From an uncultured Chloroflexia bacterium (GTDB taxonomy: Bacteria > Chloroflexota > Limnocylindria > Limnocylindrales > CSP1-4): a DNA stretch of 64,000 bases. The DNA is taken from assembly GCA_963712745.1 (NCBI GenBank), contig CAVQJC010000011.1, positions 337,241-401,240 of the forward strand, given 5' to 3'. Shown here one piece after another: positions 40,412-61,564 of this stretch. Made by a program: the position numbers and the translations under genes. Position 1 is the first letter of the stretch. Every line of letters begins with the position of its first letter. Under the pieces are notes generated by a model, which saw only the letters and a program-made list of their open reading frames with translations, searched no databases and was not told where the DNA came from.

Positions 40412-40427
40412 TCCCGGGTCGGTGTGG

Positions 40428-41321
40428 CTAGCTGGTACGAACGGACGGTGCGCCGACGGCGATGTGGTGGGTGGCCTGGTCTCGCGCTGCGCGCATGAGG
40501 TGGGTCAGGAGGATGGCGCTGGTGAGCGGGCCCACGCCGCCGGGCACGGGCGTGATGGCGGAAGCGACCTGCGAGACCGACTCGAAGTCGACGTCGCCGA
40601 CGAGCCCATCGTCGGTCACGTTGATGCCGACGTCGATGACGACCGCGCCTTCCTTCAGCATCTCGCCGGTGACGAGTCCGGCCCGGCCTGCGGCCACGAC
40701 CACCACGTCCGCCTCTCGCAGGACGGCTCCGAGATCGGGCGTGCGCGAGTGACACATCGTGACCGTGGCGTGCTCACGCAGCAGTAGGAGCGATGCCGGC
40801 TTGCCGATGACGTTTGAGCGGCCGACCACAGCGGCACGCGACCCTGCCAGCTCGATGCCCGAGTGCTTGAGCAGCTCGACCGAGGCGTGTGCGGTGGCCG
40901 GCAGGTAGCCCTCGTAGCCGAGCGCGAGCAGCCCGGCGTTGAGGGGGTGGATGCCGTCGATGTCCTTGCGCGGGTCGAGCGTGTCGAGTACGACGCGTAG
41001 CGGGATGCAATCGGGCAGCGGCTGCTGGACGATGATGCCGGCCACCTCGCGCTCCTGGCCGAGCGCGCCGATGGCGCGAGCCAGCTCCGTCTCGGAGCAG
41101 TCACCTTCGAGCTCCACGAGGCGGCCGGCCAGCCCGACGCGCTCGCAGCCATCGAGGATCTTGCGCAAGTAGACCAGCGACGGGGCATCGGCGCCTGCGA
41201 CGACGATGGCGAGCTCCGGCGCGTAGCCGAACTCCGCCTTGAACGCGACCACGTCAGCGGCCACGGTCTCGCGGATCTCAGCCGCGATGGGACCTCCCTT
41301 GAGCAGCTCGGCGGCCATCAA
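40428..41321 (-). CDS. folD: Methylene-THF dehydrogenase/cyclohydrolase
   Basis: GIIVQQPLP, KDIDG, GRSNVIGKP, IDVGIN and TPVPGGVGP. Confidence 0.95.
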   Translation of the reverse strand: MMAAELLKGGPIAAEIRETVAADVVAFKAEFGYAPELAIVVAGADAPSLVYLRKILDGCERVGLAGRLVELEGDCSETELARAIGALGQEREVAGIIVQQPLPDCIPLRVVLDTLDPRKDIDGIHPLNAGLLALGYEGYLPATAHASVELLKHSGIELAGSRAAVVGRSNVIGKPASLLLLREHATVTMCHSRTPDLGAVLREADVVVVAAGRAGLVTGEMLKEGAVVIDVGINVTDDGLVGDVDFESVSQVASAITPVPGGVGPLTSAILLTHLMRAARDQATHHIAVGAPSVRTS

Positions 41322-41345
41322 CGCTCCTCCCTGTGGACCTTCAGG

Positions 41346-42383
41346 CTACGCGAATCTGCCCGCGCGGAAGGCCTCGATGAACTGCATACCGAAGGCGTCC
41401 TCGCCAGTGAGCATGGCCTTGGCCAGCGTATAGGCCTCCGAATCGCGATCGGGGTCCAGGGCCGCCTGCACGTCGGCGACCGGGTCGATGATGCCGCTGT
41501 CCTGGCCGGCCTGGACGCAGAGGTCGAGGAAGACGTCGCTGATGATGCGGCGGGCCGGCAGGCCGAAGCTGATGTTGCTGACGCCGCCGGTGATGTGGAT
41601 CTCTTCGCCGAAGCGCTCGCGGATGGTGCTCACCGCGTCCAGGTAGGCCTGCCCGGCCAGGGGGTCCACGCCGATGGGGATGACCAGCGGGTCGACGTAG
41701 AGGGAGTCGGCCGGCAGCCCCATCTCGTAGGCCAGGCCGATGATCTCCTCGGCCCGTTCGATGCGGTCCTGGGTCCCTGACGGCATCGATCGGCCGGTGC
41801 ACGAGAGCACGACCGGCGTGCCCCGTTCCTTGACCAGGTCCAGCACCTCCGGGCGCTCGACATTGGCGGAGTTGACCATGGGCGTGGCGCCGCCGGCCCA
41901 GGCCGGGTCGATGGCCTCGAGGCCCGCCTTGAGCACCGCGGCGTCGGACGAGTCGATGGAGAGTGGGACCGACGAAGCCGGTCCTACGGCTGCCACGAGC
42001 CACTTCATGGCGTCGAGCCGGCCGACGACCTCCGGGCTGATCTCGTCCACGTTGAGGTCCAGATAGTGGGCTCCGCCGGCGATCTGCCGCTCCGCCATCC
42101 AGGCCACGTAGCGCGCGGCCACGTCGGCGTCCGGGCCACCGGCCAGGCCATCGCGGACCGCGGCCATCACATGCTTGATGCGGTCGCTGGTGGTGAACTC
42201 CTTGGACTCGAGGATCGACTCCGGCAGCGGCACCCAGGACTCGCCGTCACCGTCGGGGAAGCGCACGCCGGGGCGGCCGTCGGGCGCCACGCCGCCGCGG
42301 ATGCCTTCGCGCTTGACGACTCGGCTGCAGTGGATGTTCTCGCCGATGATGATGAAGTCCTGGGCGCCCACGGCGTCGGTCAC
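41346..42383 (-). CDS. Pterin-binding methylcorrinoid:THF methyltransferase (AcsE/MT2-like)
   Basis: IIGENIH, YLDLNVD, LSIDSS, VNS, YVDP and GGVSNISFGLP. Confidence 0.85.
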   Translation of the reverse strand: MTDAVGAQDFIIIGENIHCSRVVKREGIRGGVAPDGRPGVRFPDGDGESWVPLPESILESKEFTTSDRIKHVMAAVRDGLAGGPDADVAARYVAWMAERQIAGGAHYLDLNVDEISPEVVGRLDAMKWLVAAVGPASSVPLSIDSSDAAVLKAGLEAIDPAWAGGATPMVNSANVERPEVLDLVKERGTPVVLSCTGRSMPSGTQDRIERAEEIIGLAYEMGLPADSLYVDPLVIPIGVDPLAGQAYLDAVSTIRERFGEEIHITGGVSNISFGLPARRIISDVFLDLCVQAGQDSGIIDPVADVQAALDPDRDSEAYTLAKAMLTGEDAFGMQFIEAFRAGRFA

Positions 42384-43876
42384 GAGTCGTCTCCTTCGGT
42401 GCTGGCGGTGGAACGGCCGTAGTGGTCGCGGCCGAGGAACGTGTTGGCCCAGGCGCTTGTGCCGCGAAGGGCGTTGTCCTGGAGTACGGGCTCGCGTTCC
42501 AGCATGGTCTCAGCCTCGCCGTAGGGGCGGAGGCGATCGTAGGCGACGGCCCAGACACAGGGTTTGCCGGGCACCTCGCACTCTCCCTCGAGCGACCCGC
42601 CACAGGGGCCGTTGCGCTGGTTCTTGGCACAGGCGCCTTCGGGACACTGGTAGGCGATGTCCGGGAGCGAGCAGTCGCCGCAGTCCTGGCAGTCGAACAT
42701 GGGGATCTTGACGGCCTGCTCGAAGACGTGAGCCGGCCACATCAGGTGGGCTGACTCGAGGCGTTCGTAGGCACCACGGGCCACGGAGAACCCACGCGAT
42801 CCGGGGTCGAAGGCGAGGTCGTGGACGAGCCGGTTGAAGCGGTACTTGAGCGGTACCCGCTTGGTCCTGGTCGGCTTGGTGGGCTGACCCGAGGCCAGCT
42901 GCGGAACGTCGCCCTGCTCGTAGAGCCGATACGGTGCCGGCTCGGGGAAGTGGATGTCCGGGAGCAGGGCCTGCCACTCGGACCGGTAGTCGTTAGCCAT
43001 GCTCAGGACCTTGTCGATCTCGGCCACGTTGCGCTGGCCGGCGATGTAGGCACCGGCGAAGCCCAGGCCACGCACGACCGCGACCTGCTTAGCCGCGAAT
43101 TCGAGGAATGCGGCACGGCCCTTGTCGTCCGCGGCCGCCCGCTCATCGGCCCAGGCCTTGAGTTCGTCACTAAGGCGGATGCCGGGCACGCCGTTGGTGT
43201 TGAAGACCCGCGCCACGCCCTTGCTCAGGATGTAGACCGAGGCCATCAGCGGGACCGGCCTCGGCTGGCTCGTGTTCCAATGCAACAGCTCCGACCAGCT
43301 GCGCGTGTCGTAGCCGACTTGCGCGATGGCCAGGTCCGCCCCGGAGCGGACCTTGAGCGCCAGCTTGAGGTACTGCGGCACGAGGTCCGCTTCGACGGCC
43401 TTGAAGGGATTGACCGCGCAGCCGACGGTGAAGCGAGGCCCGGACTTAGAGGCCTCGCGCATCATCGAGATGAGCCCCACCGAGTCGATATCGAAGACCG
43501 CGCGCGAGCGCCCCTTGAAGCCCTCCCTGGGGTAGTCGCCGCTGAGCGCCAGGGCGTTGGTCAGGCCCGAGCTGGCCAGTCCGTAGACGGTCGACTGCAG
43601 GGCAGCCCGGCTGCGGTCGCGACAGGCCAGGTGGACGACGCACTCGCCACCCATCTGCTGGATGGCCTGGCCCAGGGTGAGTGGGCCCAGGCGCACGAAG
43701 CCGCCGGCATTGTCGGTCACGGTCAGGGCCGTGATGCGGGGATCGGCGGACAGCTCGCGGGCGGTCTCGCGGTGGCGCTCACCGGCCTCGTCCTGGAGCG
43801 GGCCGGCCCAGGGCACCAGCTCCACGAGCGTGGTGCTGCCATCGTTGCGCGCGAGGGAGTCTGCGAAGGCGGTCAT
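42380..43876 (-). CDS. metF: Methylene-THF reductase MetF with fused MetV-like domain (paralog 2)
   Basis: Same architecture as 37075-38703 (TDNAGG, HLACRDR, SGDYP, CQDCGDC..KNQRNGPCGG). Probable start ATG 43876. Confidence 0.88.
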   Translation of the reverse strand: MTAFADSLARNDGSTTLVELVPWAGPLQDEAGERHRETARELSADPRITALTVTDNAGGFVRLGPLTLGQAIQQMGGECVVHLACRDRSRAALQSTVYGLASSGLTNALALSGDYPREGFKGRSRAVFDIDSVGLISMMREASKSGPRFTVGCAVNPFKAVEADLVPQYLKLALKVRSGADLAIAQVGYDTRSWSELLHWNTSQPRPVPLMASVYILSKGVARVFNTNGVPGIRLSDELKAWADERAAADDKGRAAFLEFAAKQVAVVRGLGFAGAYIAGQRNVAEIDKVLSMANDYRSEWQALLPDIHFPEPAPYRLYEQGDVPQLASGQPTKPTRTKRVPLKYRFNRLVHDLAFDPGSRGFSVARGAYERLESAHLMWPAHVFEQAVKIPMFDCQDCGDCSLPDIAYQCPEGACAKNQRNGPCGGSLEGECEVPGKPCVWAVAYDRLRPYGEAETMLEREPVLQDNALRGTSAWANTFLGRDHYGRSTASTEGDDS

Positions 43877-43915
43877 CGGTCCTGCGTCCTGTGGGAGCTG
43901 CACGGCTCGGGGCTG

Positions 43916-43952
43916 ACGGTACACCCTGAGGCTCCCACGTCAACCGGTTGAC
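43916..43952 (-). promoter_or_regulatory. LacI-type operator GTCAACCGGTTGAC (43939-43952) over a sigma70-like promoter for metF-MT-folD-fhs
   Basis: Perfect 14-bp palindrome; the minus strand reads TTGACG-16 nt-TACCGT. Confidence 0.8.
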
Positions 43953-44039
43953 CAACAGGTCCGAAAGGCCCGCTCCATGCCCCCGAACGGACAGGTGCGG
44001 CCCTGCAGACCGCCTTCACGACCTCACGAGAAAGCGCAC

Positions 44040-45297
44040 CTAGCGATACTCGTCGACGGCCTCGAACATGGCCTCGATGTTCTCCGGCGGGATGTCCGGC
44101 AGCATGTTGTGGGCGGTGGCGAAGACGAAGCCGCCGCCTGGCGCGAAGGTCTCGATGTTGCGCCGGACGTGCTCGCGGACCTCCTCTGGTGTGCCCTTGG
44201 GCAGGACCCTGCGGGTGTCCGCGCCGCCGCCCCAGAAGGTGATCTCCGCGCCGAACTCCGCCTTGAGCCGCTCCGGCTCCATGTTCGCTGCCGAGATCTG
44301 GACCGGGTTGAGGATGTCGACGCCCGTCTCGATGATGTCCGGCAGCAGGTCATACAGCGAGCCGCACGAATGCAGGAACGTCTTCATCGAGCTGCGCTCG
44401 TGGACATAGGCGTTGAGCGCTGCGTGCCGCGGCTTGAAGATGGTCCGGTAGGTGTCGGGCGACATCAGCGGGCCGTTGTCCATGCCCAGGTCGTCGCCGA
44501 AGCGGACGATGTCGACGATGTCGCCGACCGACTCGATGACGTGGTCGAGCGTGGCGAAGTGGAGCTCCAGCAGCGCGTCGAGCAGGCGCTCGACGTTGGC
44601 CTGGTCGACGACGAGGTCCATGAGGAAGTTGTCGATGCGCCGCAGGAAGGTGCCCCACTCGAAGAGGTTGCAGCCGACCACCACCATGAGCGCGCGATCG
44701 GTCGACGCTCGCAGCGCCAGCGTCTGCCTGCGCAGTGTCCCCCAGAAGCCGTCGTCGCCGGCGTGGTCCCAGGGGCTGTGCACGAGGCCTGACCAGAGCA
44801 CCAGCGGCATGACCTCAGCAAGGCTGGAGAGGTCGTCCGGGTAGCCGTCCACATAGGGGAAGTAGGTCTGATCGAAGAAGGCCGCACCACGTGGCATCGA
44901 CGCGATGCGCAGGCCGTCAGCGGTGAAGGCGTCGAGGGCGCCGTTCTCCTGTCGGACCGGGTCGAACCAGGCCGGGTATCTCGGTCTCGATACCGCTGGG
45001 CAGCGTCAGCGGCTTCCAGTCGGCGTCGCTGGTGTCGAAGGTCCGTCCGATGTCCATCACGTCGATGCGCAGCCGGTCGAGCAGTTCGTCAGACGGCTGA
45101 GCCAGCTGCTGGACCACGTCGTACACCCGTGTGTGCTGGTCGGCCAGGCCCAGGTGCCGCACGAAGTTGGCGTGAGCGACCGCGGAGATGCCCGAGCTCG
45201 GAGTCGAACCCAGGTCCACCGGCAATCGGTCTGGCTCCCGGTGTTCGATACTCGCGAGGACTCGCTGGCGCGGTGTCATCGGATCGATGGTTGACAC
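44040..45297 (-). CDS. UroD/MtaA-family methyltransferase, with a +1 frameshift at ~44979
   Basis: MTPRQRVLASIEHREPDRLPVD, GDDLG, FLHSCG, LNPVQ and GGGFVFATAHN. SD GGGAGG precedes GTG 45297. Confidence 0.85.
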
Positions 45298-45544
45298 GGA
45301 CGACCTCCCTGCTCGATATGGCTGCCAGTATCGTTCGTATCCCGTTCGAGGACAGTGCGGAGGGCCACGGAGGGCGAGCTCATGACCACCGCCGTCACTC
45401 GCCCGGCCGCACGCGACCCTCGCTTCGGACTGGTCGAGCCTGCCGAGGTGGACGGGGGCCGCCAGCGCGTGCCACAGCGGCCGCGCCATCTCCGATCTGC
45501 GATGAGCGTCGATCTCTTCGAGCGTGTCCGCCTGGGGCGGGCCC

Positions 45545-45853
45545 CGCGGCGAACCCGACCCCGGACGCGAGGTTCCCCTATGCCCCCGCACCGCCGGCCC
45601 TGCTGGAGCGGGCGCTCGCCATCAAGGCCATCCGTGTTCGCCACGGCGTGCCCCTTCGTGCGGCGGCGCTCCGGTTCGTTCTAGGCCACCCGCTGGTGGT
45701 CTCGGTGACAGCCGGCGTGCGCTCCATCGCGCACCTCGACGATGCCTTGGCCAACCTGCGCCACCCCATCCGGCCACGCTCTGGGACGAGTTGCGTGATG
45801 AGGGTCCGCTGCCGGACGGCGTGCCGACCCCGGGGAGCCGGCCACAGCCCTGA
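45545..45853 (+). pseudogene. Aldo/keto reductase C-terminal remnant
   Basis: YAPAPPALLERA..HGVPLRAAALRF..HP.VVSV..GVRS, then LWDELR..G.LP in another frame. No recognisable catalytic N-terminal part. Confidence 0.6.
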
Positions 45854-45878
45854 CCGACCCCAGCCCTGGAGGGCGTGG

Positions 45879-47068
45879 CTACGCCTCCGGCAGGTCCAGC
45901 GGGTACTGTCCGAACTCGCGCACGAGCTTGACGATGAGGTCGTAGGTCTGGCCCGAGACGTCGCTCGAGACCGAGTGGTCCGACATGAAGACGTAGCCGC
46001 CGCCGTAGGCGGCGCGGAGCCGGTGCAGCACCTCGCGACGGATCTCGTCAGCGTCGCCGCGTTCCCACACGCGCATGTCGCTGTTGCCGCAGAACGTGAG
46101 CCGGTGGCCCAGGCGTTCCCGCAGCTCGACCACGTCCAGGTCGGCCTTGGCCTCGAGCGGGTTGTAGCCGTCGAGCCCGATCTCGATCATGTCCTCGAGG
46201 TAGCTGTTGGCGTTGCCGCAGCCGTGGAAGATGACCGGCAGGCCGTGCGAGTGGGACAGCTCGATAATGCGTGCGATGGTGGGCTTGTAGTACTTGCGCC
46301 AGTAGGTCGGGCCCATGAACAGGCCCTTCTTGTAGGCCGCATCGCCCCAGATGACCATGCCGTCAAGGAGTCCTCCGGCGGCCTCGATCTGGGCCTTGGC
46401 CACCTCGTAGCTGAACTCGCCGATGCGCAGCAGCTGCTCCCCGAAGCGTTCGGGATACTCGCCGATCCAGGTCAGCGTGTTGAGCTGGCCGAGCAGGCGG
46501 GTAGTGATCTCAGAGGCCTCGGTGATGCTGCCGTAGACGGGGAAGTCGGCATGCAGCGAGCGGACCGTCTCTACCCACGGCGGGCTGTTGCGCTCGAAGC
46601 CGTCACCCACGCCAGCGATCTGGTTGTCGCCGGCCTCGAAGTAGCGCCGGCGATCCGCACGGGTCGTCGAACTCGAACGCCTCCATCTTCTCGATGGTCT
46701 CGGTGTCCCAGCTGATCTGCTCCGGCATGGGCAGGTCGAATCGCTTGCGGATGGTCGTCTCGAAGCCGGTTCGGACCACGACCTCCTCGTCGTCCTCCTT
46801 GACCGTCTCGAAGGCTCGGATGTGAGGGTCCATGTTGGGGACGGTGACGATGAAGTCGAGGTCGTAGTGGCGATGCGGGTCCGCGTCCTCGGGCAGGCCC
46901 AACTCCTGACGCCAGCGCCTGACGAAGCGAGCCCCAGAAGAAGTCGCTGATAGGGACCCGGTCGGCCTCCTCGTGGGCGAAGGTCTTGCGCATCCGCTCC
47001 AGCTTGGCCAGGGCGCCAGGTGTGCGCTCGATGCTGCCGGACGAGCCGACGGTGCCGAAGAAGCTCAT
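45879..47068 (-). CDS. UroD/MtaA-family methyltransferase, with +1 frameshifts at ~46927 and ~46659
   Basis: Three consecutive ORF fragments: HEEADRVPISDFFWG, WGD, IFHGCG, YNPLE and GGGYVFMSDHS. Confidence 0.82.
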
Positions 47069-47086
47069 CGTTTCATCTCCCTGCGG

Positions 47087-47719
47087 CTAGGCCGCGCCGA
47101 TCAGTGAACGCGCGACGTCGACGGCCGCGCCCGCGTCCTCGGCGAAACCGTCGGCTCCTACTTCATCCGCGAACTCGGCGCTCACCGGAGCGCCGCCCAC
47201 GAGCACCTTCGTGTTGACGCCCGTGGCCTTCACCGCGGCCACGGCCTTCCTCATGTGCGGGACCGTGGTGGTCAACAGGGCGGACATGCCCACGATGTCC
47301 GGCTGATGCACCTTCGCGGCCTCCGCGAACGCGGCCGGGGAGACGTTGACGCCGAGGTCGATGACCTCGAAGTTCGCACCGCGCCACATCATGCCCACCA
47401 GGTTCTTGCCGATGTCGTGGAGATCACCCTCCACGGTGCCGATGACCGCGCTGTGCGGCGCCTTGACACCGCTTTCGGCGATGAGGGGCTCGAGGATGGC
47501 CAGGGAGGCCTTCATGGCGTTGGCCGCGATGAGCATCTCTGGCACGAAGATCTCGTCTCGCTGGAACCGCTCGCCGATGACAGCCATGCCCGGCACCAAA
47601 CGCCCCTCGACGATCGAGCTGGCATCCTCGCCGTCGTCGAGGCACTGCCGCGTCAGCTCGGTCGCTGCCGCCTTGTCACCATCGATGATGGCTTGGGTCA
47701 ATGGGTGCATCTCAGCCAA
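47087..47719 (-). CDS. Corrinoid (B12-binding) protein of a methyltransferase system
   Basis: Cap domain FVPEML, GDLHDIGKNLV, SALLTTT and VLVGGAP. TTG 47719 follows GGAGG. Confidence 0.93.
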   Translation of the reverse strand: MAEMHPLTQAIIDGDKAAATELTRQCLDDGEDASSIVEGRLVPGMAVIGERFQRDEIFVPEMLIAANAMKASLAILEPLIAESGVKAPHSAVIGTVEGDLHDIGKNLVGMMWRGANFEVIDLGVNVSPAAFAEAAKVHQPDIVGMSALLTTTVPHMRKAVAAVKATGVNTKVLVGGAPVSAEFADEVGADGFAEDAGAAVDVARSLIGAA

Positions 47720-47736
47720 GTCCGGACCTCCTCCCG

Positions 47737-48873
47737 TCACGCGTGGTCGCGTGCATGCTCCTCTGACTGTGGATGGTGTGGCTCCCGTTCGTCATGGTCG
47801 ATGTGGACCACCTGCCCGGTCTCTCCGGACCGGTACAGGGCTTCGACGAGGCGCAACGTGCGCAGATTGTCGCGAGCCCCGGCCTCGGGCTCGCCGCCAT
47901 CCTCGATCGCTCGCAGCAGCGAGCCCACCGGACCCAGGAATGCGTCGGGGATCCAGCGGCGCGTGACCGGGTACGGCAGCCAGCCGTCGGTCGGCAGCAC
48001 CCCGCTCCACAGCTCAAGCCGATCAGGCCGGCCGTGCGGATAGTCCGCGAGCAGGCCCAGGTCGCCCCTGATCGAGCCCTCTGAGCCGTCGATGCGGAAA
48101 CGTGCCTCGTTGTCTCCGGCGGGGTTCTCGTGGTTGGAATGGACGACCGCGCGAAGGTCGCCCGGGTACATCAAGATGCTGACCGACCTGGTCTCGCCCA
48201 CCGGCTTCTGGCCGGGCAGCCGCCACTGCGTACCAAACACGGCACTGGGCTCGCCGAGGAAGGCCCGGATGGTGTCGATGTAGTGGATCGAATGGAAGTA
48301 GATCTCCAGCTGAGGCTGCTCGCCCAGCCACCCCCAGCTGCCGAAGTCCGTATCGATGTTGACCTCGAAGGTGATGGTGGTGACCTCGCCGATCCAGCCT
48401 CGCTCGATCATGGCGCGCGCGGCCAGCATGCCTTCCTCGTAGCGCATCTGCTGCTGCACGGCGACCTTGCGACCGAGCCGGTCGGCTCGCTCGACGATTC
48501 GCTCCGCGTCGTCCACATCCAGCGCCAGCGGCTTCTGGCAGATCACGTCCTTGCCGGCCTCGAGCGCCGCCAATGCCACGCCCACCTGAGCTTCGGGCAC
48601 GACGGCGATGTCGACGACCGCGACCTCGGGGTCAGCCAGCAGTTGTTCCAGCGACTCGTGGACACGCGGGATGCCGTGGGCATTGGCGAGTCGTTCGGCG
48701 TGCCCTCGTGTGCGACCCCAGACAGCCGGGACCGGGATGCCGGCCGCCTTGTACGCCGGCAGGTGCCCGACATCGAGGATGGCGCCTGTGCCGACGATCC
48801 CGATTGGGCGCCGGTAACGCTCTGGCAGGGTCAGGTCACAGGCCGCAGCGATCTGCGCCAGCTGGCCGATCAC
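47737..48873 (-). CDS. Gfo/Idh/MocA-family oxidoreductase
   Basis: GIVGTGAI, CQKPLA and HSIHYID. Paralog of 57243-58330. Start uncertain. Confidence 0.88.
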   Translation of the reverse strand: MIGQLAQIAAACDLTLPERYRRPIGIVGTGAILDVGHLPAYKAAGIPVPAVWGRTRGHAERLANAHGIPRVHESLEQLLADPEVAVVDIAVVPEAQVGVALAALEAGKDVICQKPLALDVDDAERIVERADRLGRKVAVQQQMRYEEGMLAARAMIERGWIGEVTTITFEVNIDTDFGSWGWLGEQPQLEIYFHSIHYIDTIRAFLGEPSAVFGTQWRLPGQKPVGETRSVSILMYPGDLRAVVHSNHENPAGDNEARFRIDGSEGSIRGDLGLLADYPHGRPDRLELWSGVLPTDGWLPYPVTRRWIPDAFLGPVGSLLRAIEDGGEPEAGARDNLRTLRLVEALYRSGETGQVVHIDHDEREPHHPQSEEHARDHA

Positions 48874-48986
48874 GTCGCCGTACCTCGCGTGGGCATCTGC
48901 ACCTCCTGGCGTCGGACTCCGAGCGTCATCTCGATCGCCCGGGCGCTCCCGCGGTCGGGAGCGTTGGCCACTCGCCGATGCGGGCA

Positions 48987-49024
48987 TGTATAGCAACCGG
49001 GAGGCGGCAAGTCAACCGGTTGAC
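48987..49024 (-). promoter_or_regulatory. Operator GTCAACCGGTTGAC (49011-49024) over the promoter for oxidoreductase-corrinoid-UroD
   Basis: Perfect palindrome; the minus strand reads TTGACT-17 nt-TATACA. Confidence 0.8.
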
Positions 49025-49043
49025 CTGTCCCGTCGGTCGCATC

Positions 49044-50108
49044 TCAGCGCTGCCCCGGCTGGGTCTTGATGTAGGCGGTCTGCTGGGTCGACTCCGAGCC
49101 CGGAGGGGGCACGCCGACGGTAGCGCCGGGCGAGATTCGGATGTCGTCTTGCAGCGTCTCGTGGATGGGGACGTCCCACGGATTGTCAAGGACCAGCTCC
49201 ACTGCCCGCCGGCCGAGCTCGCGCAGCGGCATCTCCACGCAGGTCATGGCCGGCAGGCGGTACTCCTCCGCCGGCAGCTTGTGGATGGCCACCAACGAGA
49301 CGTCGGCGGGCACCGAGAGACCATGCTGATGCAGCTCGTGCCAGACCCCCAGGCCCTCGTTGGCATCGGCGGCGACGATGGCGGTCGGAGGGAAGGGGGT
49401 CTCCAGCAGATGCCGCACGGCGATCGCGCCACCCTCGGGTGTGTAGTCGGTGCTCACCACCCAGCTCGGATCGAGCCAGAGGTCGGCGGCGGCCATGGCA
49501 TCGCGGAAGCCCTCCTGGCGGCGCTCGGCGGTGTCGACGCCCGCCGGCCCACCGGCCCAGCCGATGCGCGTGTGGCCATGGCTGATGAGGTGCTCGGTCG
49601 CGAGTCGCGCAGCGCGCTCGTCGTCGAGGATGATCCAGCGTTCAGCGCCGCCAGAGCGGCGGTTGACGAGCAGGGTCGGTACGCGCGGATCCTGGAAGAG
49701 TTCCTCCGCGTCGTAGCCGGCCCGCAGCCCCGCCACCAGCGCGCCGTCCACGGCGCCACTACGCAGCATCCGCAGGTAGCGCTCGCTGAGCTCACCCTCG
49801 TGCGACGCCGTCCACAGCAGCAGATTGCGTTCCCCGGCGATCTCCTCGGCGCCTGCGATGATGGGCACGATGAGCGGGTTGCCCGACGGCACGAGCAGAC
49901 CGATTGCACCGGCCCGGGCGCGGGCCAGGCCGCGGGCGTAGAAGTTGGGCCGGTAGTGGAGGCGGGCGGCTGCGTCCTTGACGCGCTGCCTCGTCTCGTC
50001 GCGGACTCGCAGCGACGGATCGCCGCTAAGCACCTTGGAGACCACGGCGCGGTCGACGCCGGCCTCGCGGGCCACGTCCGCGATGGTGGTCCGACCCTGT
50101 TCATTCAC
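49044..50108 (-). CDS. LacI-family transcriptional regulator
   Basis: TTIADVAREAGVDRAVVSKVL HTH, YRPNFYARGL hinge and a periplasmic-binding-type C-terminal domain. Confidence 0.95.
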   Translation of the reverse strand: MNEQGRTTIADVAREAGVDRAVVSKVLSGDPSLRVRDETRQRVKDAAARLHYRPNFYARGLARARAGAIGLLVPSGNPLIVPIIAGAEEIAGERNLLLWTASHEGELSERYLRMLRSGAVDGALVAGLRAGYDAEELFQDPRVPTLLVNRRSGGAERWIILDDERAARLATEHLISHGHTRIGWAGGPAGVDTAERRQEGFRDAMAAADLWLDPSWVVSTDYTPEGGAIAVRHLLETPFPPTAIVAADANEGLGVWHELHQHGLSVPADVSLVAIHKLPAEEYRLPAMTCVEMPLRELGRRAVELVLDNPWDVPIHETLQDDIRISPGATVGVPPPGSESTQQTAYIKTQPGQR

Positions 50109-50188
50109 CGATGCATCCCGCCTTTCATCTGCCGGGGCGTACGGGATGGCTCGCAGCCGGACACAGCATGCGCCGGTGGCTTCTTCTG

Positions 50189-50227
50189 GTCAACCGGTTG
50201 ACGTTGGCGTCCGCGGCGGGCTACCGT
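50189..50227 (+). promoter_or_regulatory. Operator GTCAACCGGTTGAC (50189-50202) over the promoter in the lacI/isomerase divergent region
   Basis: Perfect palindrome followed by TTGACG-18 nt-TACCGT. Confidence 0.82.
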
Positions 50228-50286
50228 CTGTGGCCAGCGACGGTCACCGGCACCAGACGGCCTGGCACTGCGAGGAGGAGCGTGAC

Positions 50287-51144
50287 ATGCGTTTCGGGGT
50301 ACTCGGCGTCATCTGGAGCGACTGGACCGACGTCACCTACGAGACGGCGGCGTTCGCGCGTGAGCTCGGCTTCAGCGGCATCGGTGCGCACCTGACCGTG
50401 CCTGCCTCGACCATCAGCGACGAGCTCGCGGAGAGGGTCCGCTCGTCGGTCGAGGGCAACGGTCTCGACTTCATCCAGGTCTGGGGACCGTACCCGACGA
50501 TCATCAGTGACGACGAGGATGTTCGACGCGCCGGTGTGGCGGGAGCACAGGATGTCGCACGCCTGGCCGCCCGACTGGGTGTACCCGCGTCGGGTGTCCG
50601 GCCGACGAGCCACAACCCTCGTGGCGACTGGTGGCCGCATCCGGAGAACCACACCGGGGCCAGCGAGGACCGGCTCGTGAGCAGCATCTCGGAGATACTT
50701 GACGTCGCCGTGCCGGCCGGGGTCAGGCTCGTGCTCGAGGCCCATGCGACCTCGACGCTCGATTCAGCCGAGCGCGTGCGGCGGGTCATCGAACGTACCG
50801 ATCCTGCCCACGTCACCGTCAACATCGATCCGGTCAACTTCGTGCGCGACCTGCCGACCGCCTACGACTCGACGACCATGGTCAACGAGTACTTCGACAT
50901 CTGCGGCGAGTTCTGCGGAACCGTCCAGGTCAAGGACTACTACCTGGAGGATCGTTTCGTCGTTCACATCGCAGAGACCATCCCCGGCACCGGCATGCTC
51001 GACATCGACACCGTCCTGCGTCGCACCGAGGCCTTGAGTCCCGACATGTACGCGGTCATCGAGCACCTTCCGGTCAACCAGATCGGACTGGCCAAGAAGC
51101 ACCTCACCGCGCGCGCCGCGGCACTCGGACTCGAGGTGCACTAA
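50287..51144 (+). CDS. Sugar phosphate isomerase/epimerase (xylose isomerase-like TIM barrel)
   Basis: LVLEAH, NIDPVN, QVKD, PGTG and IEH metal-site pattern. SD GAGGAG. Confidence 0.85.
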   Translation: MRFGVLGVIWSDWTDVTYETAAFARELGFSGIGAHLTVPASTISDELAERVRSSVEGNGLDFIQVWGPYPTIISDDEDVRRAGVAGAQDVARLAARLGVPASGVRPTSHNPRGDWWPHPENHTGASEDRLVSSISEILDVAVPAGVRLVLEAHATSTLDSAERVRRVIERTDPAHVTVNIDPVNFVRDLPTAYDSTTMVNEYFDICGEFCGTVQVKDYYLEDRFVVHIAETIPGTGMLDIDTVLRRTEALSPDMYAVIEHLPVNQIGLAKKHLTARAAALGLEVH

Positions 51145-51147
51145 GTC

Positions 51148-52521
51148 ATGACCGATCTATCCCACACCGACTCCATCCGCTTGCGGGTGCTGGCCGAGCA
51201 GTACCTGTGGATGCCCTACTCGCCGCCCGGCGCCCAGGGGTCTGTCCGTGACGAGATCCGCGTCATGACCCACGGTCGCGGAGTGCTCACCTGGGACGCC
51301 GAGGGCAGGGAGTACCTCGACGGCACGTCTGCGCTGGAGGCCCTGATCCTGGGGCACGCCGACGAGGAGATCGTGAAGGCCATCGCGCAGCAGGCGCGCA
51401 CGATGTCCTTCGTCGACGTCTTCCGCTTCGTGACTCCGCCACAGGTAGAGCTGGCCGCGGAGCTGGTGGCCGCTTCGCCGGGCATGGCTATGGCGCACTT
51501 CACACCGGGCGGGGCGGAGGCAGATGAAGTCGCCATCAAGATGGCTCGCCAGTACCATGCGCTCCGGGGCGAGCCGTACCGCATGAAGGTCATAACCCGC
51601 CAAGGCGCGTTCCACGGCGTGACCGCCGGGGCCATGGCTCTCGACGGGCAGTACTTCGCCTCGCGCAACGTCGTCTACGACGGCGGCCTCAGCTGGGGTC
51701 GGACGGTGCCGGCTGGTGCCTGCCCCCGCTGCGACTTCGGCAAGGCCAGCCGGCACCTGGCCTGCGTGCACTCCATCGAGGCCACCATCCGCGCGGAGGG
51801 ACCAGAGACCGTGGCCGCGGTGGTGGTCGATCCGTGCGCCACCGCCATCGCGGTGTCGGTGCCGCCGGTGGGCTACCTGCGCGACCTGCGCAAGGTCTGC
51901 GACCGCTACGGCGCACTGCTGGTGGTCGACGAGGTCATCACCGGCATGGGCCGCACGGGCAAGCTGTTCGCGACCGAATGGGATGGCATCGTGCCCGACT
52001 TCATCACCCTCTCCAAGGCCCTCAGCTCCGGCTACGTGCCCATCGGTGCGGCGCTCGTCTCACCGAGGGTGCGCGATGCCTTCATCGAGCACGATGGCGT
52101 CTTCCTGCACGGCCATACGTACGCCGGCCACCCGATCGCCGCCGCAGCCGCCCTGGCCGTCCTGCGCCGGGTGATCCGCGACGACCTCGTCGAGCGTTCG
52201 GCTCGGCTCGGTGCACGACTGCTCGATGGCGTCCGCTCGCTCAGTCACCATCGCTTCTACTGGGACGCTCGCGGAAAGGGCTTGCTGGTGGGACTGGAGA
52301 TCGTCCGCGACAACGGTGCTGGCGAAGACTTCCTCGACCCGCTCGCGGCCGGCAACGCCCTGCGCATCGCGGCCCGTGAGCGTGGCTTGACCACGCTCCT
52401 GCTGCATCCAGGAAACGTGCTCTTCGTGGCGCCCGCGGTCGTGGCCAGCGTGGACCAGATCGATCGTATGGTGGCCATCCTGGACGACGCGCTGGCAGAC
52501 GTGGAGGCACAGCTTGCCTGA
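51148..52521 (+). CDS. Class III PLP-dependent aminotransferase
   Basis: GREYLDG, AFHG, DEVITGMGRTG, SKAL and HGHTYAGHP. Confidence 0.92.
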   Translation: MTDLSHTDSIRLRVLAEQYLWMPYSPPGAQGSVRDEIRVMTHGRGVLTWDAEGREYLDGTSALEALILGHADEEIVKAIAQQARTMSFVDVFRFVTPPQVELAAELVAASPGMAMAHFTPGGAEADEVAIKMARQYHALRGEPYRMKVITRQGAFHGVTAGAMALDGQYFASRNVVYDGGLSWGRTVPAGACPRCDFGKASRHLACVHSIEATIRAEGPETVAAVVVDPCATAIAVSVPPVGYLRDLRKVCDRYGALLVVDEVITGMGRTGKLFATEWDGIVPDFITLSKALSSGYVPIGAALVSPRVRDAFIEHDGVFLHGHTYAGHPIAAAAALAVLRRVIRDDLVERSARLGARLLDGVRSLSHHRFYWDARGKGLLVGLEIVRDNGAGEDFLDPLAAGNALRIAARERGLTTLLLHPGNVLFVAPAVVASVDQIDRMVAILDDALADVEAQLA

Positions 52522-52558
52522 GCCACGGACGAGGCCTGCCGGCCCGGGGCGTAGGATG

Positions 52559-52597
52559 GTCAACCGCTTGACTCGACGGCTGCGGAGCGACTACCGT
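52559..52597 (+). promoter_or_regulatory. Operator GTCAACCGCTTGAC (52559-52572, one mismatch) over the promoter of the lactonase-mutarotase-ABC operon
   Basis: Near-palindrome followed by TTGACT-18 nt-TACCGT. Confidence 0.78.
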
Positions 52598-52648
52598 GGC
52601 GGGACGCTGCATGGGAGCGTGTCATGAAGGGCTCGAAAGGGGTCTCAC

Positions 52649-53500
52649 GTGATCGTTGACAGCCACCAGCACTTGTGGGATCTCGGTGAGGTCGAGTACC
52701 CCTGGTTGGTGCCCGAATACGGGCCGATCTATCGCTCCTTCACGCCCGACGAGCTTGAGCCGCAGCTTGCCGCTGCCGGCATCGATCGCACCGTGCTGGT
52801 GCAAGCGGCCAACTCCTATGCCGACACGGACTCCATGTTGCGCCACGCAGAGGCATACGAGTGGATCGGTGCGGTCGTGGGTTGGGTCCCGCTCGAGGAT
52901 GCGCACGAAGCGGCGCGCGTCCTCGATGAACGTTACCTGCGGAGCCCGTGGTTCAAGGGCGTGCGCCACCTCAACCACGAAGAGGCTGACCCTGACTGGC
53001 TTGTGCGCCCGGCCGTCATCGACGGGCTCAAGGTGCTGCAGGAGCGCGGCGTGCCGTATGACGTCGTCGCGGTCTTCCCGCTGCATCTGGGGCATGTGCC
53101 GGCACTGGCCCAGGCCTGCCCGAAGCTGCCCATGGTCATCGACCATCTGGCCAAGCCGCCCATCGCTAGTGGTGACTACGACGCCTGGAAAGCGGACCTG
53201 CGCGCGGCCGCGGAGTATCCCAACGTCCACGCCAAGCTCTCGGGCCTCAACACGGCCGCCGATTGGGAGACCTGGACCGGGGCCGACCTGGTGGAGTCGA
53301 TCGGCTACGCGCTCGAGGTCTTCGGCGCCGAGCGCCTGATGTTCGGCAGCGACTGGCCAGTGGCCGTCCTCGCCGGCGACTACGCCGAGGTCTGGGCCGA
53401 GACCAACCGCGCGCTCGACGAGCTGGGCGTGCAGGCGAGCGACCGCGCTGCCATCCTCGGTGGGACGGCGGCCGGGTTCTACTCGGTGGAGGCGGCGTGA
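52649..53500 (+). CDS. Amidohydrolase-2 family sugar lactonase (L-fuconolactonase-like)
   Basis: DSHQHLW, VLVQA, GVRH, IDHLAKP, KLSG and MFGSDWPV. Confidence 0.88.
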   Translation: MIVDSHQHLWDLGEVEYPWLVPEYGPIYRSFTPDELEPQLAAAGIDRTVLVQAANSYADTDSMLRHAEAYEWIGAVVGWVPLEDAHEAARVLDERYLRSPWFKGVRHLNHEEADPDWLVRPAVIDGLKVLQERGVPYDVVAVFPLHLGHVPALAQACPKLPMVIDHLAKPPIASGDYDAWKADLRAAAEYPNVHAKLSGLNTAADWETWTGADLVESIGYALEVFGAERLMFGSDWPVAVLAGDYAEVWAETNRALDELGVQASDRAAILGGTAAGFYSVEAA

Positions 53501-53823
53501 TGAAGCGGTACGGACAGCTGATCGGGCTGAAGCCCGAGCACTACGACGAGTACGTCAAGGCCCATGCGGACGTCTGGCCAGGAGTGCTGGCCAAGATCTC
53601 CGAGTGCAACATCCGCAACTATTCGATCTTCCACCGCATGGGCCAGCTCTTCGCCTACTTCGAGTATGTCGGTGACGACTTCGACGCCGACATGCAGCGG
53701 ATGGCCGATGACCCCGAGACCCAGCGCTGGTGGGACTGGATGATGCCCATGCAGGAACCCCTCGCCGATCGTGACGAAGGGGAGTGGTGGAGTGACATGG
53801 AGGAGGTATTCCATACGGATTGA
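53500..53823 (+). CDS. L-rhamnose mutarotase-family protein
   Basis: YVKAHADVWP, NYSIF, LFAYFEY, WW and EEVFH. Confidence 0.9.
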   Translation: MKRYGQLIGLKPEHYDEYVKAHADVWPGVLAKISECNIRNYSIFHRMGQLFAYFEYVGDDFDADMQRMADDPETQRWWDWMMPMQEPLADRDEGEWWSDMEEVFHTD

Positions 53824-53911
53824 GGCATAGCCAACAGCACCTCGGCTGACGACCACAGGCCCGGCCGAAAGGGACGGCCAGGGCCCCCGGATCCTGTTAG
53901 GAGGAGGACAC

Positions 53912-55285
53912 GTGCGCGACACCATGACCATCAAGGGCGGGCGCCTGGCGATCCCGCTGGCGGCAGCTCTTGCCGCGACCGCGCTGGGCGCGGGCACCGC
54001 GCTGGCCCAGGACGAGCCGGCCTTCGCCGGGCTGGACAAGGACCTGACCGGCGTCAATCTCAAGATGGCGGCCATCGGCGGCATCCAGTACGACGGGATG
54101 TACGCCTGGATCGACAAGTTCGAGGAGGAGACCGGCGCGACCGTCGACATCGTTTTCAAGGGCGACGGCTTCGAGATCGACCAGTATCAGAAGCTCAACT
54201 TCGGCGGCGGCACGGTGGACTTCGACGTCGCCTGGAACCACACCAGCTTCATGTCGCAGTACACGAACTTCATGGAGCCACTCAACGACTACTTCACCGA
54301 GGAGGAGCTCGCGGCCTTCTCGCCGAGCATCGTCGAGGCGGCTACCATCGATGGTGACCTGCAGCTGATCCCGCGCCACGCCGACATCAGCTCGCTCTGG
54401 TATCGCAAGGATCTCTTCGAGGACCCGGACCTGCAAGCCAAGTTCGAGGAGGCCTACGGCTATCCGCTGGCGCCACCCGAGACGCTGGACCAGATGTACG
54501 ACATGTCCCAGTTCCTCGTGGGCGAGGGCGTCGTCTCGTTCGGGACCCAGTTCGCGGGCGAAGAGGAAGCTCTGGCGGGCCGCTTCTACGAACTCCTCTT
54601 CGCCAACGGCGGTGACTACTTCGACGCCGACCTTAACCCCACCTTCGACTCGGAAGCCGGCGTCCTGTCGGCCCAGTGGATGCGGGACCTCTACGCCAAT
54701 GGCCTGATCCCGTCGGATACGACGACACTGCGTTGGGACGGCGTCTTCCAGAACTTCTGCAACGGTGACGTGGCCTTCTACCTCGAGTGGTATGGCTTCT
54801 ACGGCACCGCGCAGGACCCGGAGACCTGCCCCGAGGTAGCCGGCAACTTCGGCATGGCCCGTGGTCCGGAGGGAGCCGGTGGCGTTCACACCGGTTGGGC
54901 CGGCGCCCACGCCTTCTCGGTCACGAAGGCCTCAGAGAACAAGGAAGCCGCTGTGCAGCTCATCAAGTTCCTGACGTCGGAGGCGGTCGAGCTCGACGAG
55001 ACGATGAAGCAGGGCGTCCTGCCGGTTCGCGCCGATGTGTCAGAGCGCGTGATCGCGGCGAACTCCGACACCGGCGTGCCACTTGACGCCGAGCGCTGGG
55101 AACTCGCCAACGTCCAGATCAGCGAGGACTTCCGAACCCCGCCGCTCTTCGCCGACTGGATCAGCTTCACCGACGAGTGGTATCCCACGCTCCAAGGCAT
55201 CATCCTCGGCGACGCGAGCGTCGAGGACGGCCTGGCCAAGGGTGTGGCTGACACGGTCGAGCTACTGGATAGTCTCGGCTACTAG
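53912..55285 (+). CDS. Sugar ABC transporter substrate-binding protein (CUT1)
   Basis: Signal peptide ending ALA-Q, LWYRKDLF and KEAAVQLIKFLTS. Precedes two permeases. Confidence 0.9.
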   Translation: MRDTMTIKGGRLAIPLAAALAATALGAGTALAQDEPAFAGLDKDLTGVNLKMAAIGGIQYDGMYAWIDKFEEETGATVDIVFKGDGFEIDQYQKLNFGGGTVDFDVAWNHTSFMSQYTNFMEPLNDYFTEEELAAFSPSIVEAATIDGDLQLIPRHADISSLWYRKDLFEDPDLQAKFEEAYGYPLAPPETLDQMYDMSQFLVGEGVVSFGTQFAGEEEALAGRFYELLFANGGDYFDADLNPTFDSEAGVLSAQWMRDLYANGLIPSDTTTLRWDGVFQNFCNGDVAFYLEWYGFYGTAQDPETCPEVAGNFGMARGPEGAGGVHTGWAGAHAFSVTKASENKEAAVQLIKFLTSEAVELDETMKQGVLPVRADVSERVIAANSDTGVPLDAERWELANVQISEDFRTPPLFADWISFTDEWYPTLQGIILGDASVEDGLAKGVADTVELLDSLGY

Positions 55286-55296
55286 TCAGCCGAGGG

Positions 55297-55332
55297 CGAA
55301 AGGGGCTGCGCCGCAGGGTGCGGCCCCTTTCG
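55297..55332 (+). terminator. GC-rich stem-loop after the SBP gene (terminator or mRNA-stabilising hairpin)
   Basis: CGAAAGGGGCTGCGCC-GCAG-GGTGCGGCCCCTTTCG, a 16-bp stem with G-U pairs. Confidence 0.7.
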
Positions 55333-55373
55333 GTGCATCAGACCTGCAGAGCGACGCTCGGAGTATCGACAGG

Positions 55374-57241: not shown

Positions 57242-57242
57242 G

Positions 57243-60455: not shown

Positions 60456-60529
60456 GCCTTGTCTCCCATCACGCGCGTGAGCCCCAGCGGCTCGCTCGCG
60501 GCAAGCCTACCCGCCCCGAGGAGAGCCCG

Positions 60530-61525: not shown

Positions 61526-61564
61526 GCGATCTACCCACCTCTCCCGACGATCACGGAGGTCATC

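Follow-up and report, generated by a model that had tools for sequence, protein, structure and literature searches.

A LacI-family regulator and a 14-bp palindrome predicted to join sugar, corrinoid methyltransferase and folate one-carbon genes in Limnocylindria-type Chloroflexota

A leucine in the hinge of LacI-family repressors inserts at the central base step of the operator, and one member of the family, PurR of Escherichia coli, has a regulon that includes glyA and gcv. Those portions of a survey of 1303 LacI-family regulators that concern operators and effectors describe even palindromes with a central CG, list motifs of 16-22 nt, place purine and pyrimidine synthesis under the control of PurR, and name a carbohydrate for 103 of the 107 groups with an assigned effector, which we take as the prior for the family (PMC4052901). 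Corrinoid methyltransferase genes are noted in Limnocylindria genomes in the relevant part of one report (PMC11264602), and the only carbohydrate demethylation that we found in print is an O2-dependent route in which a cytochrome P450 of marine porphyran degraders demethylates 6-O-methyl-D-galactose, as set out in portions of two papers (PMC6292453, PMC9400963). Here we analyse a stretch of 64,000 nucleotides (the window; contig CAVQJC010000011.1 of assembly GCA_963712745.1, positions 337,241 to 401,240) from an uncultured Chloroflexia bacterium of the Limnocylindrales, in which copies of a 14-bp palindrome, GTCAACCGGTTGAC, surround a LacI-family gene and appear to place sugar genes, corrinoid methyltransferase genes and folate one-carbon (C1) genes under a single repressor.

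As a first-pass annotation of this DNA had reported, the exact palindrome occurs three times in the window and a one-mismatch form, GTCAACCGCTTGAC, occurs once. These four sites, given here in window coordinates, are all of the matches with two or fewer mismatches. Dinucleotide-preserving shuffles of the window yield a mean of 0.24 matches and none of 100 shuffles reaches four, and thus chance is excluded as the source of the four sites.

43939-43952, operator O1, exact palindrome, overlapping the predicted -35 element of the metFV promoter (minus strand)
49011-49024, operator O2, exact palindrome, between the lacI stop codon and the gfo1 promoter
50189-50202, operator O3, exact palindrome, common to the divergent lacI and tim promoters
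52559-52572, operator O4, one mismatch, before the amidohydrolase operon

When start codons are fixed by ortholog alignment (metFV, ATG at 43876; gfo1, GTG at 48873; lacI, GTG at 50108; tim, ATG at 50287; amidohydrolase, GTG at 52649), all four sites prove to be non-coding, and the distances from operator to start codon are approximately 70-145 nt. No site with up to two mismatches precedes the fdh, V-ATPase or acs operons, which fill the first 38 kb of the window. On both points, the intergenic location of the sites and their absence before these three operons, the first-pass annotation was correct.

The motif is likewise not scattered through the genome, which was the outcome that a genome-wide scan had been expected to distinguish. 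The assembly (G000; 4.2 Mb, 20 contigs, 84.6% complete) carries five exact and two one-mismatch sites, seven in all, and every one is promoter-proximal. Three of them are outside the window. On contig C1, a paralogous LacI gene has an exact site 55 nt ahead of it, where TACCGT comes 17 nt after TTGACC, and 7.5 kb from that site a TIM-barrel paralog is preceded by a one-mismatch site with TACGGT at 18 nt. On contig C14, an exact site located 16 nt from the contig end precedes the E1 alpha and beta genes of a thiamine-dependent dehydrogenase. Matches with two mismatches number 15, of which 13 fall inside open reading frames (ORFs) and two in an unrelated repeat of 19 nt. These two intergenic matches, C1:128093 and C1:195926, were rejected as members of the regulon, given the shared repeat and the lack of a -10 element at the right distance. 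The repeat itself, GCCAATCGGTTGACAGCCG, is present in two copies located 68 kb apart in non-coding DNA (loci L048 and L049), and we discarded the idea that it is a tRNA fragment because ARAGORN finds no tRNA at either place.

Conservation was assessed in loci from three sources: nine congeners, in which as much as 19 kb was compared to either side of the LacI gene, seven loci from a collection scan and two loci on single contigs. Site O2, between lacI and gfo1, is present in all 12 loci that show the region. The same is true of O4, between the aminotransferase and amidohydrolase genes (12 of 12), which always carries the same asymmetric substitution, and the retention of this variant throughout suggests a tuned, weaker operator on the transporter operon. 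Site O3 is conserved in orthologs, and an orthologous O1 precedes metFV in genomes G005, G013, G021 and G055 and in locus L037. Footprinting across orthologous loci had been proposed as a check on the motif, and the alignments bear it out: the 14 operator bases are invariant at orthologous promoters and the -10 boxes are retained, while the spacers drift. Outside this 14-bp core, the sole conserved base seen in the ortholog alignment is a G at position -1.

The operators flank on both sides the gene whose product is the best candidate to bind them.

49044-50108, minus strand, lacI, LacI-family regulator of 354 aa with Pfam PF00356 and Peripla_BP domains

Its N-terminal HTH_LacI domain (PF00356, 47 bits against a cut-off of 27) is followed by an effector domain matched by PF13377 and PF00532. 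All 11 aligned members of the clade share the recognition helix DRAVVSK, which within the genome occurs in only two of the 13 LacI-type HTH domains, namely those of the window protein and its C1 paralog. Nine of the 11 aligned proteins share the hinge PNF(Y/H)ARGLA (the C1 paralog, G000C1, has PNYHAQRLA, and G018/G017 have ARSLA), and the Leu is retained in all 11. The operator, in turn, is an even palindrome with its central CG at positions 7-8 and 7 bp in each half-site, the half-site being GTCAACC. Furthermore, regulator and motif travel together. We searched 24 congeners for the LacI protein and found orthologs in 12 (59-85% identity), and each of these 12 genomes has between one and seven sites with at most one mismatch. 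Eleven of the 12 congeners that lack the protein have no site, and the twelfth has one match, equal to the reversed-pattern control. Distant orthologs (59-63% identity) have slightly shifted operators, GTCAATCGGTTGAC and GACAACCGGTTGAC, beside their own genes. Judged by every sequence-level feature of the family, the regulator and operator are thus predicted to form an ordinary LacI-family pair by mechanism, with a new specificity. The first-pass view of the palindrome as a LacI-type operator is supported by its form, its position around lacI, its co-occurrence with the protein and its conservation at orthologous loci.

In the direction of the regulated gene, the right half-site together with the next base reads TTGACN, which would place the operator over the -35 element of each promoter. 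A -10-like hexamer follows at a sigma-70-type spacing of 16-18 nt in all five promoters, as TACCGT, TATACA or CATGCT.

43916-43921, minus strand, TACCGT of the metFV promoter, 16 nt after TTGACG
48987-48992, minus strand, TATACA of the gfo1 promoter, 17 nt after TTGACT, with a preceding TGc that makes it an extended -10 (TGcTATACA)
50165-50170, minus strand, weak -10-like CATGCT of the lacI promoter, 17 nt after TTGACC
50222-50227, plus strand, TACCGT of the tim promoter, 18 nt after TTGACG
52592-52597, plus strand, TACCGT of the amidohydrolase promoter, 18 nt after TTGACT

These hexamers persist in relatives. Orthologous metFV promoters keep TACCGT or TACGGT while the spacer varies, the string ttgcTATACA before gfo1 is conserved in all five aligned orthologs, and gcgCATGCTg before lacI is retained in four of six. 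Before tim, the string gcTACCGTctgt is retained in four of six aligned loci and the other two have TACGGT. The tRNA genes of the organism provide an internal standard for the -10 element. TACCAT is the most enriched hexamer upstream of the 47 tRNA genes (7 of 47, approximately 44-fold). At a distance of 4-16 nt before the gene, TAnnnT ends in 19 of 47 cases versus 1.3% of random windows, TGnTAnnnT in 12 of 47 versus 0.04%, and TACC[AG]T in 4 of 47 versus 0.09%. The -10 assignment is therefore well grounded, as it matches the organism's own type of -10 element.

The operon behind O1 holds the folate C1 genes.

38700-43876, minus strand, metFV operon (Pfam; NCBIfam at family level only)
42380-43876, minus strand, metFV, a MetF/MetV fusion, with its start taken from ortholog alignment
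41346-42383, minus strand, MT2, pterin-binding methyl-tetrahydrofolate:corrinoid methyltransferase (PF00809; NF005719 at 173 bits, below the cut-off of 259)
40428-41321, minus strand, folD (PF02882)
38700-40403, minus strand, fhs copy 2 (Pfam)

In six loci (the window, G005, G013, G021, G055 and L037) metFV has its own site directly upstream, and in G021 a single operator is shared by lacI and a divergent metFV-MT2-folD-fhs operon. Genome G009 has the four C1 genes directly after the second URO-D gene described below, with no gap, so they would be transcribed from the gfo1 site. A further arrangement is found in G001 and G053, where metFV follows the E1 alpha and beta genes behind another operator and folD-fhs follow the URO-D genes; the pterin methyltransferase gene comes after metFV in G001, and the DNA fetched for G053 ends at metFV. 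As read from gene order, the C1 genes stay in the predicted regulon through four gene arrangements, with metFV under an operator in nine of the 12 informative loci, which supports the earlier proposal that the LacI protein controls folate C1 enzymes. The folD gene of the window is the only PF02882 match in the 4.2 Mb assembly. Similarly, 12 congeners have a FolD 82-88% identical to it as their sole match, and in the cases that were mapped (G001, G009, G021, G053 and G055) this gene resides in the LacI locus. Separately, we observed that fhs copy 2 and a copy beside formate dehydrogenase (8841-10544) are identical over 1718 nt (99.94%), which could reflect a recent duplication, gene conversion or an assembly artefact.

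Bacterial O-demethylases use substrate methyltransferases (MT1) of the URO-D family. Two URO-D-like genes and a corrinoid protein gene make up most of the operon downstream of O2.

44040-48873, minus strand, gfo1 operon (Pfam, ORF frames)
47737-48873, minus strand, gfo1, Gfo/Idh/MocA oxidoreductase (Pfam)
47087-47740, minus strand, corrinoid protein (PF02310 and PF02607; B12-binding and B12-binding_2)
45879-47068, minus strand, URO-D-like methyltransferase b, with two frameshifts
44040-45279, minus strand, URO-D-like methyltransferase a, with one frameshift near 44975

The corrinoid protein scores 189 bits in NCBIfam against 370 for MtgC. Structural matches to gfo1 include many Gfo/Idh/MocA enzymes, among them DgpA and 1,5-anhydrofructose reductase. 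RACo-type activators are encoded at two places, in the acs operon and approximately 18 kb before the window, and neither gene is behind an operator site. Compared with relatives, the window has approximately 570 nt of extra DNA between its two URO-D genes, and contigs from other sequencing runs skip 769 or 366 nt within the region 44040-47068. Related genes are also seen elsewhere. In a 318-aa ORF at 7479-8435, beside fhs copy 1, part of a B12-binding domain is fused to a URO-D domain of which only the C-terminal half is present; an 81%-identical URO-D paralog occurs on contig C1 beside a paralog of x433 (see below); and on contig C14 (locus L006, 10677-12147) a second corrinoid protein gene, followed by a gene for a DUF1638 protein, is convergent with the operator-bearing E1 alpha and beta genes.

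The non-phosphorylative pathway for L-rhamnose and L-fucose comprises a mutarotase, a 1-dehydrogenase, a cog3618 lactonase, a dehydratase and an aldolase. Some of these families are recognisable in the operons behind O3 and O4 and in the genes that follow.

50287-52521, plus strand, tim operon (Pfam)
50287-51144, plus strand, tim, xylose-isomerase-like TIM barrel (Pfam; no PDB or NCBIfam match)
51148-52521, plus strand, class III aminotransferase (Pfam; the PDB sequence matches are generic omega-transaminases)
52649-59682, plus strand, amidohydrolase operon (Pfam; NCBIfam matches all below equivalog cut-offs)
52649-53500, plus strand, cog3618-type Amidohydro_2, lactonase-like (nearest to L-fucono-1,5-lactonase, 198 bits against a cut-off of 400)
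53263-53823, plus strand, ORF with the domain of a RhaM-like gene (mutarotase family; Pfam)
53912-55285, plus strand, SBP_bac_1 binding protein (nearest structures: maltose, trehalose and sulfoquinovosyl-glycerol binders)
55083-56336 and 56333-57241, plus strand, ORFs for two permeases (Pfam)
57401-58330, plus strand, gfo2, a second Gfo/Idh/MocA protein (Pfam)
58327-59682, plus strand, Lyase_1 (solved-structure matches: carboxymuconate cycloisomerase-like proteins)
59691-60455, minus strand, SDR, with a weak match to L-rhamnose 1-dehydrogenase and no operator of its own in the window
60530-61525, x331, a conserved protein of 331 aa with no Pfam or NCBIfam match
61565-62599, core-MetE-like gene, with no operator of its own in the window
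62596-63897, minus strand, x433, divergent URO-D-like protein (nearest ESM Atlas clusters are URO-D domain proteins, score 0.99), whose promoter runs off the contig end

Pfam agrees with the gene names that the first-pass annotation had assigned at all four sites. NCBIfam gives no equivalog-level name for any regulon protein, its matches all lying below the equivalog cut-offs, and so none of these proteins is a known enzyme; comparisons with solved structures gave no specific clue to the substrate. The genes at 59691-63897, none of which has an operator of its own in the window, are conserved as neighbours in relatives by synteny, and in relatives there are also a second ABC transporter, of the monosaccharide type, and an aldehyde dehydrogenase. 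Among congeners (G005, G009, G013, G001 and G055), the TIM-barrel protein is only 49-59% identical and the neighbouring aminotransferase 88-91%, which points to fast evolution or replacement of that single gene. The nearest ESM Atlas clusters to x331 are unnamed families from Chloroflexota and Actinomycetota, and x331 is always syntenic with the SDR and core-MetE-like genes.

The locus probably extends beyond the window. In G053, x433 and E1 alpha diverge from one operator. In the genome studied here, x433 points at the end of contig C11, which is also the end of the window, and the C14 site is at the end of its own contig. The two contig ends share no overlapping sequence. If they are placed end to end, a TAnnnC box falls 18 nt after TTGACT before x433. 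Synteny with G053 therefore makes it probable that C11 and C14 abut, forming one locus of approximately 37 kb with five operators.

Contig C1 contains a paralogous locus at approximately 434700-452660 (L005, 437000-456999) that mirrors the sugar genes at 57-89% identity and includes two operator sites. It holds SDR, lyase, gfo2, RhaM, amidohydrolase, aminotransferase, TIM-barrel and LacI genes and pieces of the transporter, with a lower GC content at third codon positions. Of the nine genes matched by tblastn besides lacI, seven (the counterparts of the aminotransferase, amidohydrolase, gfo2, lyase, SDR, x331 and MetE-like genes) give matches broken into two to four pieces, while the genes for LacI and the RhaM-like protein each align as one piece. 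This region may be either a decaying duplicate or a badly assembled stretch.

A clue to the substrate comes from outside the genus. Orthologs of URO-D b are present in three of 400 other Chloroflexota genomes sampled (two from other families and one from another genus), each in a sugar context and each accompanied by a RhaM-family gene. Locus L055 (G066:C83; 56% GC) comes from another family. All on a single strand, it has three URO-D genes and RhaM, then the URO-D b ortholog and a creatininase-family gene, then SBP_bac_1, two permeases and a corrinoid protein, with the four URO-D paralogs in a row. Locus L056 (G125:C47) has the order RhaM, URO-D b ortholog, PfkB sugar kinase, and L054 (G363:C12; the other genus) has gfo1, RhaM, SDR, corrinoid protein and URO-D b ortholog. 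No match to metFV, folD, fhs or the pterin methyltransferase was found in the 9.7-20 kb around these three loci, where acs genes were not searched. The association of URO-D b with RhaM and with sugar transport or phosphorylation genes, which does not depend on this LacI protein, points to a methylated carbohydrate as the substrate.

Taken together, these observations make it likely, in our judgement, that the genes form a super-locus for catabolism of a methyl-bearing carbohydrate, under the control of a local LacI repressor. We hold the operator and the regulon to be highly probable, whereas the methylated nature of the carbohydrate has about an even chance of being correct. From sequence and gene content we predict binding and repression as well as the kind of effector and substrate and the direction in which methyl groups flow. 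Specifically, a LacI dimer would occupy each site with its hinge helices over the central CG. The TTGAC of the right half-site would serve as the -35 element of a promoter whose TAnnnT -10 lies 16-18 nt further downstream, such that bound repressor would exclude RNA polymerase until an effector, probably a carbohydrate or a derivative of one, releases it. Because both strands read TTGAC, one palindrome can serve two divergent promoters. The regulon would have two parts: a super-locus whose five sites comprise the four of the window and the one at the C14 end, and the second, apparently decayed locus on C1 with two.

Three modules would then be expressed together. Sugar-like uptake and oxidation would be the task of the ABC transporter, the RhaM-like and lactonase-like proteins, the two Gfo/Idh/MocA proteins, the TIM barrel, the transaminase and the lyase. 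Corrinoid methyl transfer would be carried out by the two URO-D-type methyltransferases, the corrinoid protein and the pterin-binding methyltransferase, and methyl-tetrahydrofolate oxidation by MetFV, FolD and Fhs. The substrate might be an O-methylated sugar, deoxysugar or cyclitol, or a methoxy-bearing glycoside, whose methyl group would pass to cobalt, then to tetrahydrofolate, and onward to formate or to the neighbouring acetyl-CoA synthase. A more ambitious proposal, which we advance tentatively and judge to have somewhat less than an even chance, is that Limnocylindria-type Chloroflexota possess an anoxic cobalamin pathway for stripping sugar methyl ethers, in which URO-D and RhaM-like proteins deliver methyl groups through the corrinoid protein and tetrahydrofolate to the Wood-Ljungdahl pathway. 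A single LacI protein would detect the methyl sugar and induce together the genes for its transport and demethylation, for oxidation of the methyl group (the only folD among them) and for catabolism of the backbone. Candidate substrates for such a pathway are O-methyl forms of rhamnose, fucose, galactose and glucuronate from plant, moss or algal walls, and O-methyl inositols.

The same LacI protein and operator could instead respond to an ordinary sugar, with the C1 genes running the methyl branch of the Wood-Ljungdahl pathway reductively as an electron sink for sugar oxidation, and with the corrinoid and URO-D genes as passengers or agents of some other methyl transfer. Such an arrangement would suit the convergence of the metFV operon with the acs operon in a window that holds the whole carbonyl branch, it would need the folD of the predicted regulon just as the oxidative route does, and plain carbohydrates are what most LacI effectors are. 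We nevertheless regard it as unlikely. In 12 of 12 loci, the corrinoid protein and two URO-D genes head an operon of their own behind an operator. In distant Chloroflexota, RhaM and sugar transporter or kinase genes accompany this URO-D family, and metFV, folD, fhs and the pterin methyltransferase gave no match in the 9.7-20 kb around it, where acs genes were not searched. Moreover, the acs operon already has a MetFV (the second in the genome) and an AcsE of its own.

Two further explanations concern the palindrome itself. It might be bound by another protein, either the C1 LacI paralog or a regulator of a different family encoded elsewhere. The paralog is intact, is 65% identical to the window protein, shares its recognition helix and has its own exact site with TACCGT 17 nt downstream. 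Yet most relatives have only one LacI protein of this clade and still retain all the sites, the locus contains no other conserved regulator gene, and the motif tracks the window-type LacI across the genus, all of which makes this explanation quite improbable. Less probable still, to the point that we give it very little weight, is that the palindrome is no repressor site at all and is instead part of a promoter cassette, a strong -35 element with a symmetric upstream half, that was spread by local duplication. The right half-site is indeed a good -35 sequence and the -10 hexamer TACCGT is common to three promoters. However, the left half-site has no promoter role at one-way promoters and is still invariant in orthologs while the spacer between -35 and -10 drifts, the cassette is not found in congeners without the LacI protein apart from the single control-level match, and TTGACN is not a general -35 element in this genome.

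Several observations weigh against the favoured reading, in which a LacI repressor controls catabolism of a methyl-bearing carbohydrate. A strict E. coli-type scan (at least four of six positions per hexamer) of 43700-52800 calls no promoters, a result explained by the fact that TACCGT matches TATAAT at only three of six positions. TTGACN lies 16-18 nt from TAnnnT in none of the 47 tRNA upstream regions. The first-pass annotation had assigned TTGAC as the -35 element with TACCGT 16-18 nt on; the second part holds, at 16, 18 and 18 nt in three promoters, and the first finds no parallel among the tRNA genes, so that the -35 role is suggested by geometry, namely the spacing and the fact that three of the five promoters have no TG extension. 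The presence of a second LacI protein with the same helix means that the protein acting at each site cannot be assigned. Because the regulon contains the only detectable folD, control by a substrate-specific repressor is awkward unless repression is leaky or folD has an internal or other promoter. Three of the 12 informative loci (L043, L046 and L047) show no metFV in the DNA fetched around the locus. As annotated, the sugar pathway is incomplete, with no dehydratase or aldolase recognised. Not all enzymes of the non-phosphorylative 6-deoxyhexose pathway are recognisable, and the dehydrogenases are identified at family level only.

The methyl-transfer genes raise their own difficulties for this reading. 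URO-D b shows an H-x-C ... C pattern, which we take to resemble the zinc site of methylcobamide:thiol methyltransferases, and this bears on the direction of methyl flow. Furthermore, both URO-D genes are frameshifted in the window assembly, and the methyl-transfer module may be dead in the sequenced strain. Both genes are intact in G001 (395 and 412 aa), split matches turn up sporadically in all the assemblies compared, and contigs from two other public runs, which cover the stretch in pieces and were used for this point alone, are without one base at 46656/46657, exactly at one of the frameshifts. For these reasons we lean towards assembly error over decay in the strain. No RNA data set was listed for 43800-52700, and the DNA data sets listed share at most 0.40 of its sequence words, a small part from which we infer nothing about habitat or strain.

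If the proposal is correct, anaerobic C1 metabolism in an abundant, uncultured lineage of soils and sediments draws methyl groups from methylated carbohydrates, and corrinoid-dependent demethylation gains a new class of substrate, the equivalent for carbohydrates of growth on methoxylated aromatics. A candidate pathway for the anoxic use of methyl sugars also becomes directly testable, in that the repressor, its predicted 14-bp operator, the binding protein and the two methyltransferases could be expressed and screened against methyl sugars without cultivation. One unrelated feature of the window deserves mention: a single ORF of 1156 aa at 20275-23745 carries two ATP-synt_ab and two V/A-type C-terminal domains, corresponding to V-type ATPase A and B, and represents either a fusion or a lost stop codon.

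How, then, does this system compare with those already described? In the literature that we searched, supplementary files excepted, we found no LacI-family regulator with corrinoid methyltransferases or the folate methyl branch under its control, and no link between corrinoid methyl transfer and methylated sugars, pinitol or RhaM-like proteins. Type 1 mlp clusters were considered and set aside, because the portions of the report that describe them concern methyl-sulfur or methyl-selenide metabolism (PMC10418091). Among sugar pathways, the L-rhamnose/L-fucose route offers the clearest resemblance, through the RhaM family, Amidohydro_2, the SDR and an ABC importer; it differs in the dehydratase and aldolase steps, for which no counterpart is recognised here, and in lacking the extra TIM barrel, transaminase, lyase and E1 alpha and beta proteins. 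The P450 route of porphyran degraders, as far as the cited portions describe it, similarly removes a sugar methyl ether before catabolism by means of a demethylase encoded with sugar utilisation genes. That route requires O2 and yields formaldehyde, whereas the route proposed here would be anoxic and cobalt-mediated and would conserve the methyl group on tetrahydrofolate.

With regard to enzymology, the closest parallels are the three-component corrinoid O-demethylases that act on vanillate, veratrol and guaiacol in acetogens and Desulfitobacterium, the Mto system of Methermicoccus (described in part in PMC8630106) and MtgABC for glycine betaine. Like the present locus, where the substrate methyltransferases are candidates, these systems combine a substrate methyltransferase with a corrinoid protein and a pterin-binding methyltransferase, and MetF, FolD and Fhs act after them. 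The difference is that here the genes are syntenic, and predicted to be co-regulated, with genes for a sugar transporter and for mutarotase-like, lactonase-like and sugar dehydrogenase proteins under a LacI regulator.

With regard to regulation, PurR of E. coli is a precedent for a LacI-family protein with authority over non-sugar metabolism that touches folate-dependent steps. However, PurR is a global biosynthetic regulator with a purine co-repressor, and the regulon described here is local (one locus and its paralog) and looks catabolic. The nearest relatives by mechanism are the LacI/GalR sugar repressors, such as LacI, GalR and RbsR of E. coli, which likewise combine HTH_LacI with a periplasmic-binding-protein-like sensor and a hinge Leu and which, according to the pertinent sections of the survey, recognise an even operator with a central CG, regulate their own genes (as is predicted here) and use sites approximately 30-140 bp from the start that overlap the promoter (PMC4052901). 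The regulator of this study departs from them in its helix, DRAVVSK, and its half-site, GTCAACC, and its last 24 residues, inspected by eye, show no C-terminal tetramerisation heptads. Most distinctively, its predicted regulon includes corrinoid methyltransferases and folate C1 enzymes, for which our searches turned up no description in any LacI regulon. A LacI repressor acting on a palindrome over the -35 element is a textbook device. It is the content of the regulon that is unusual, and the predicted wiring of sugar genes to corrinoid and folate C1 genes that is new.

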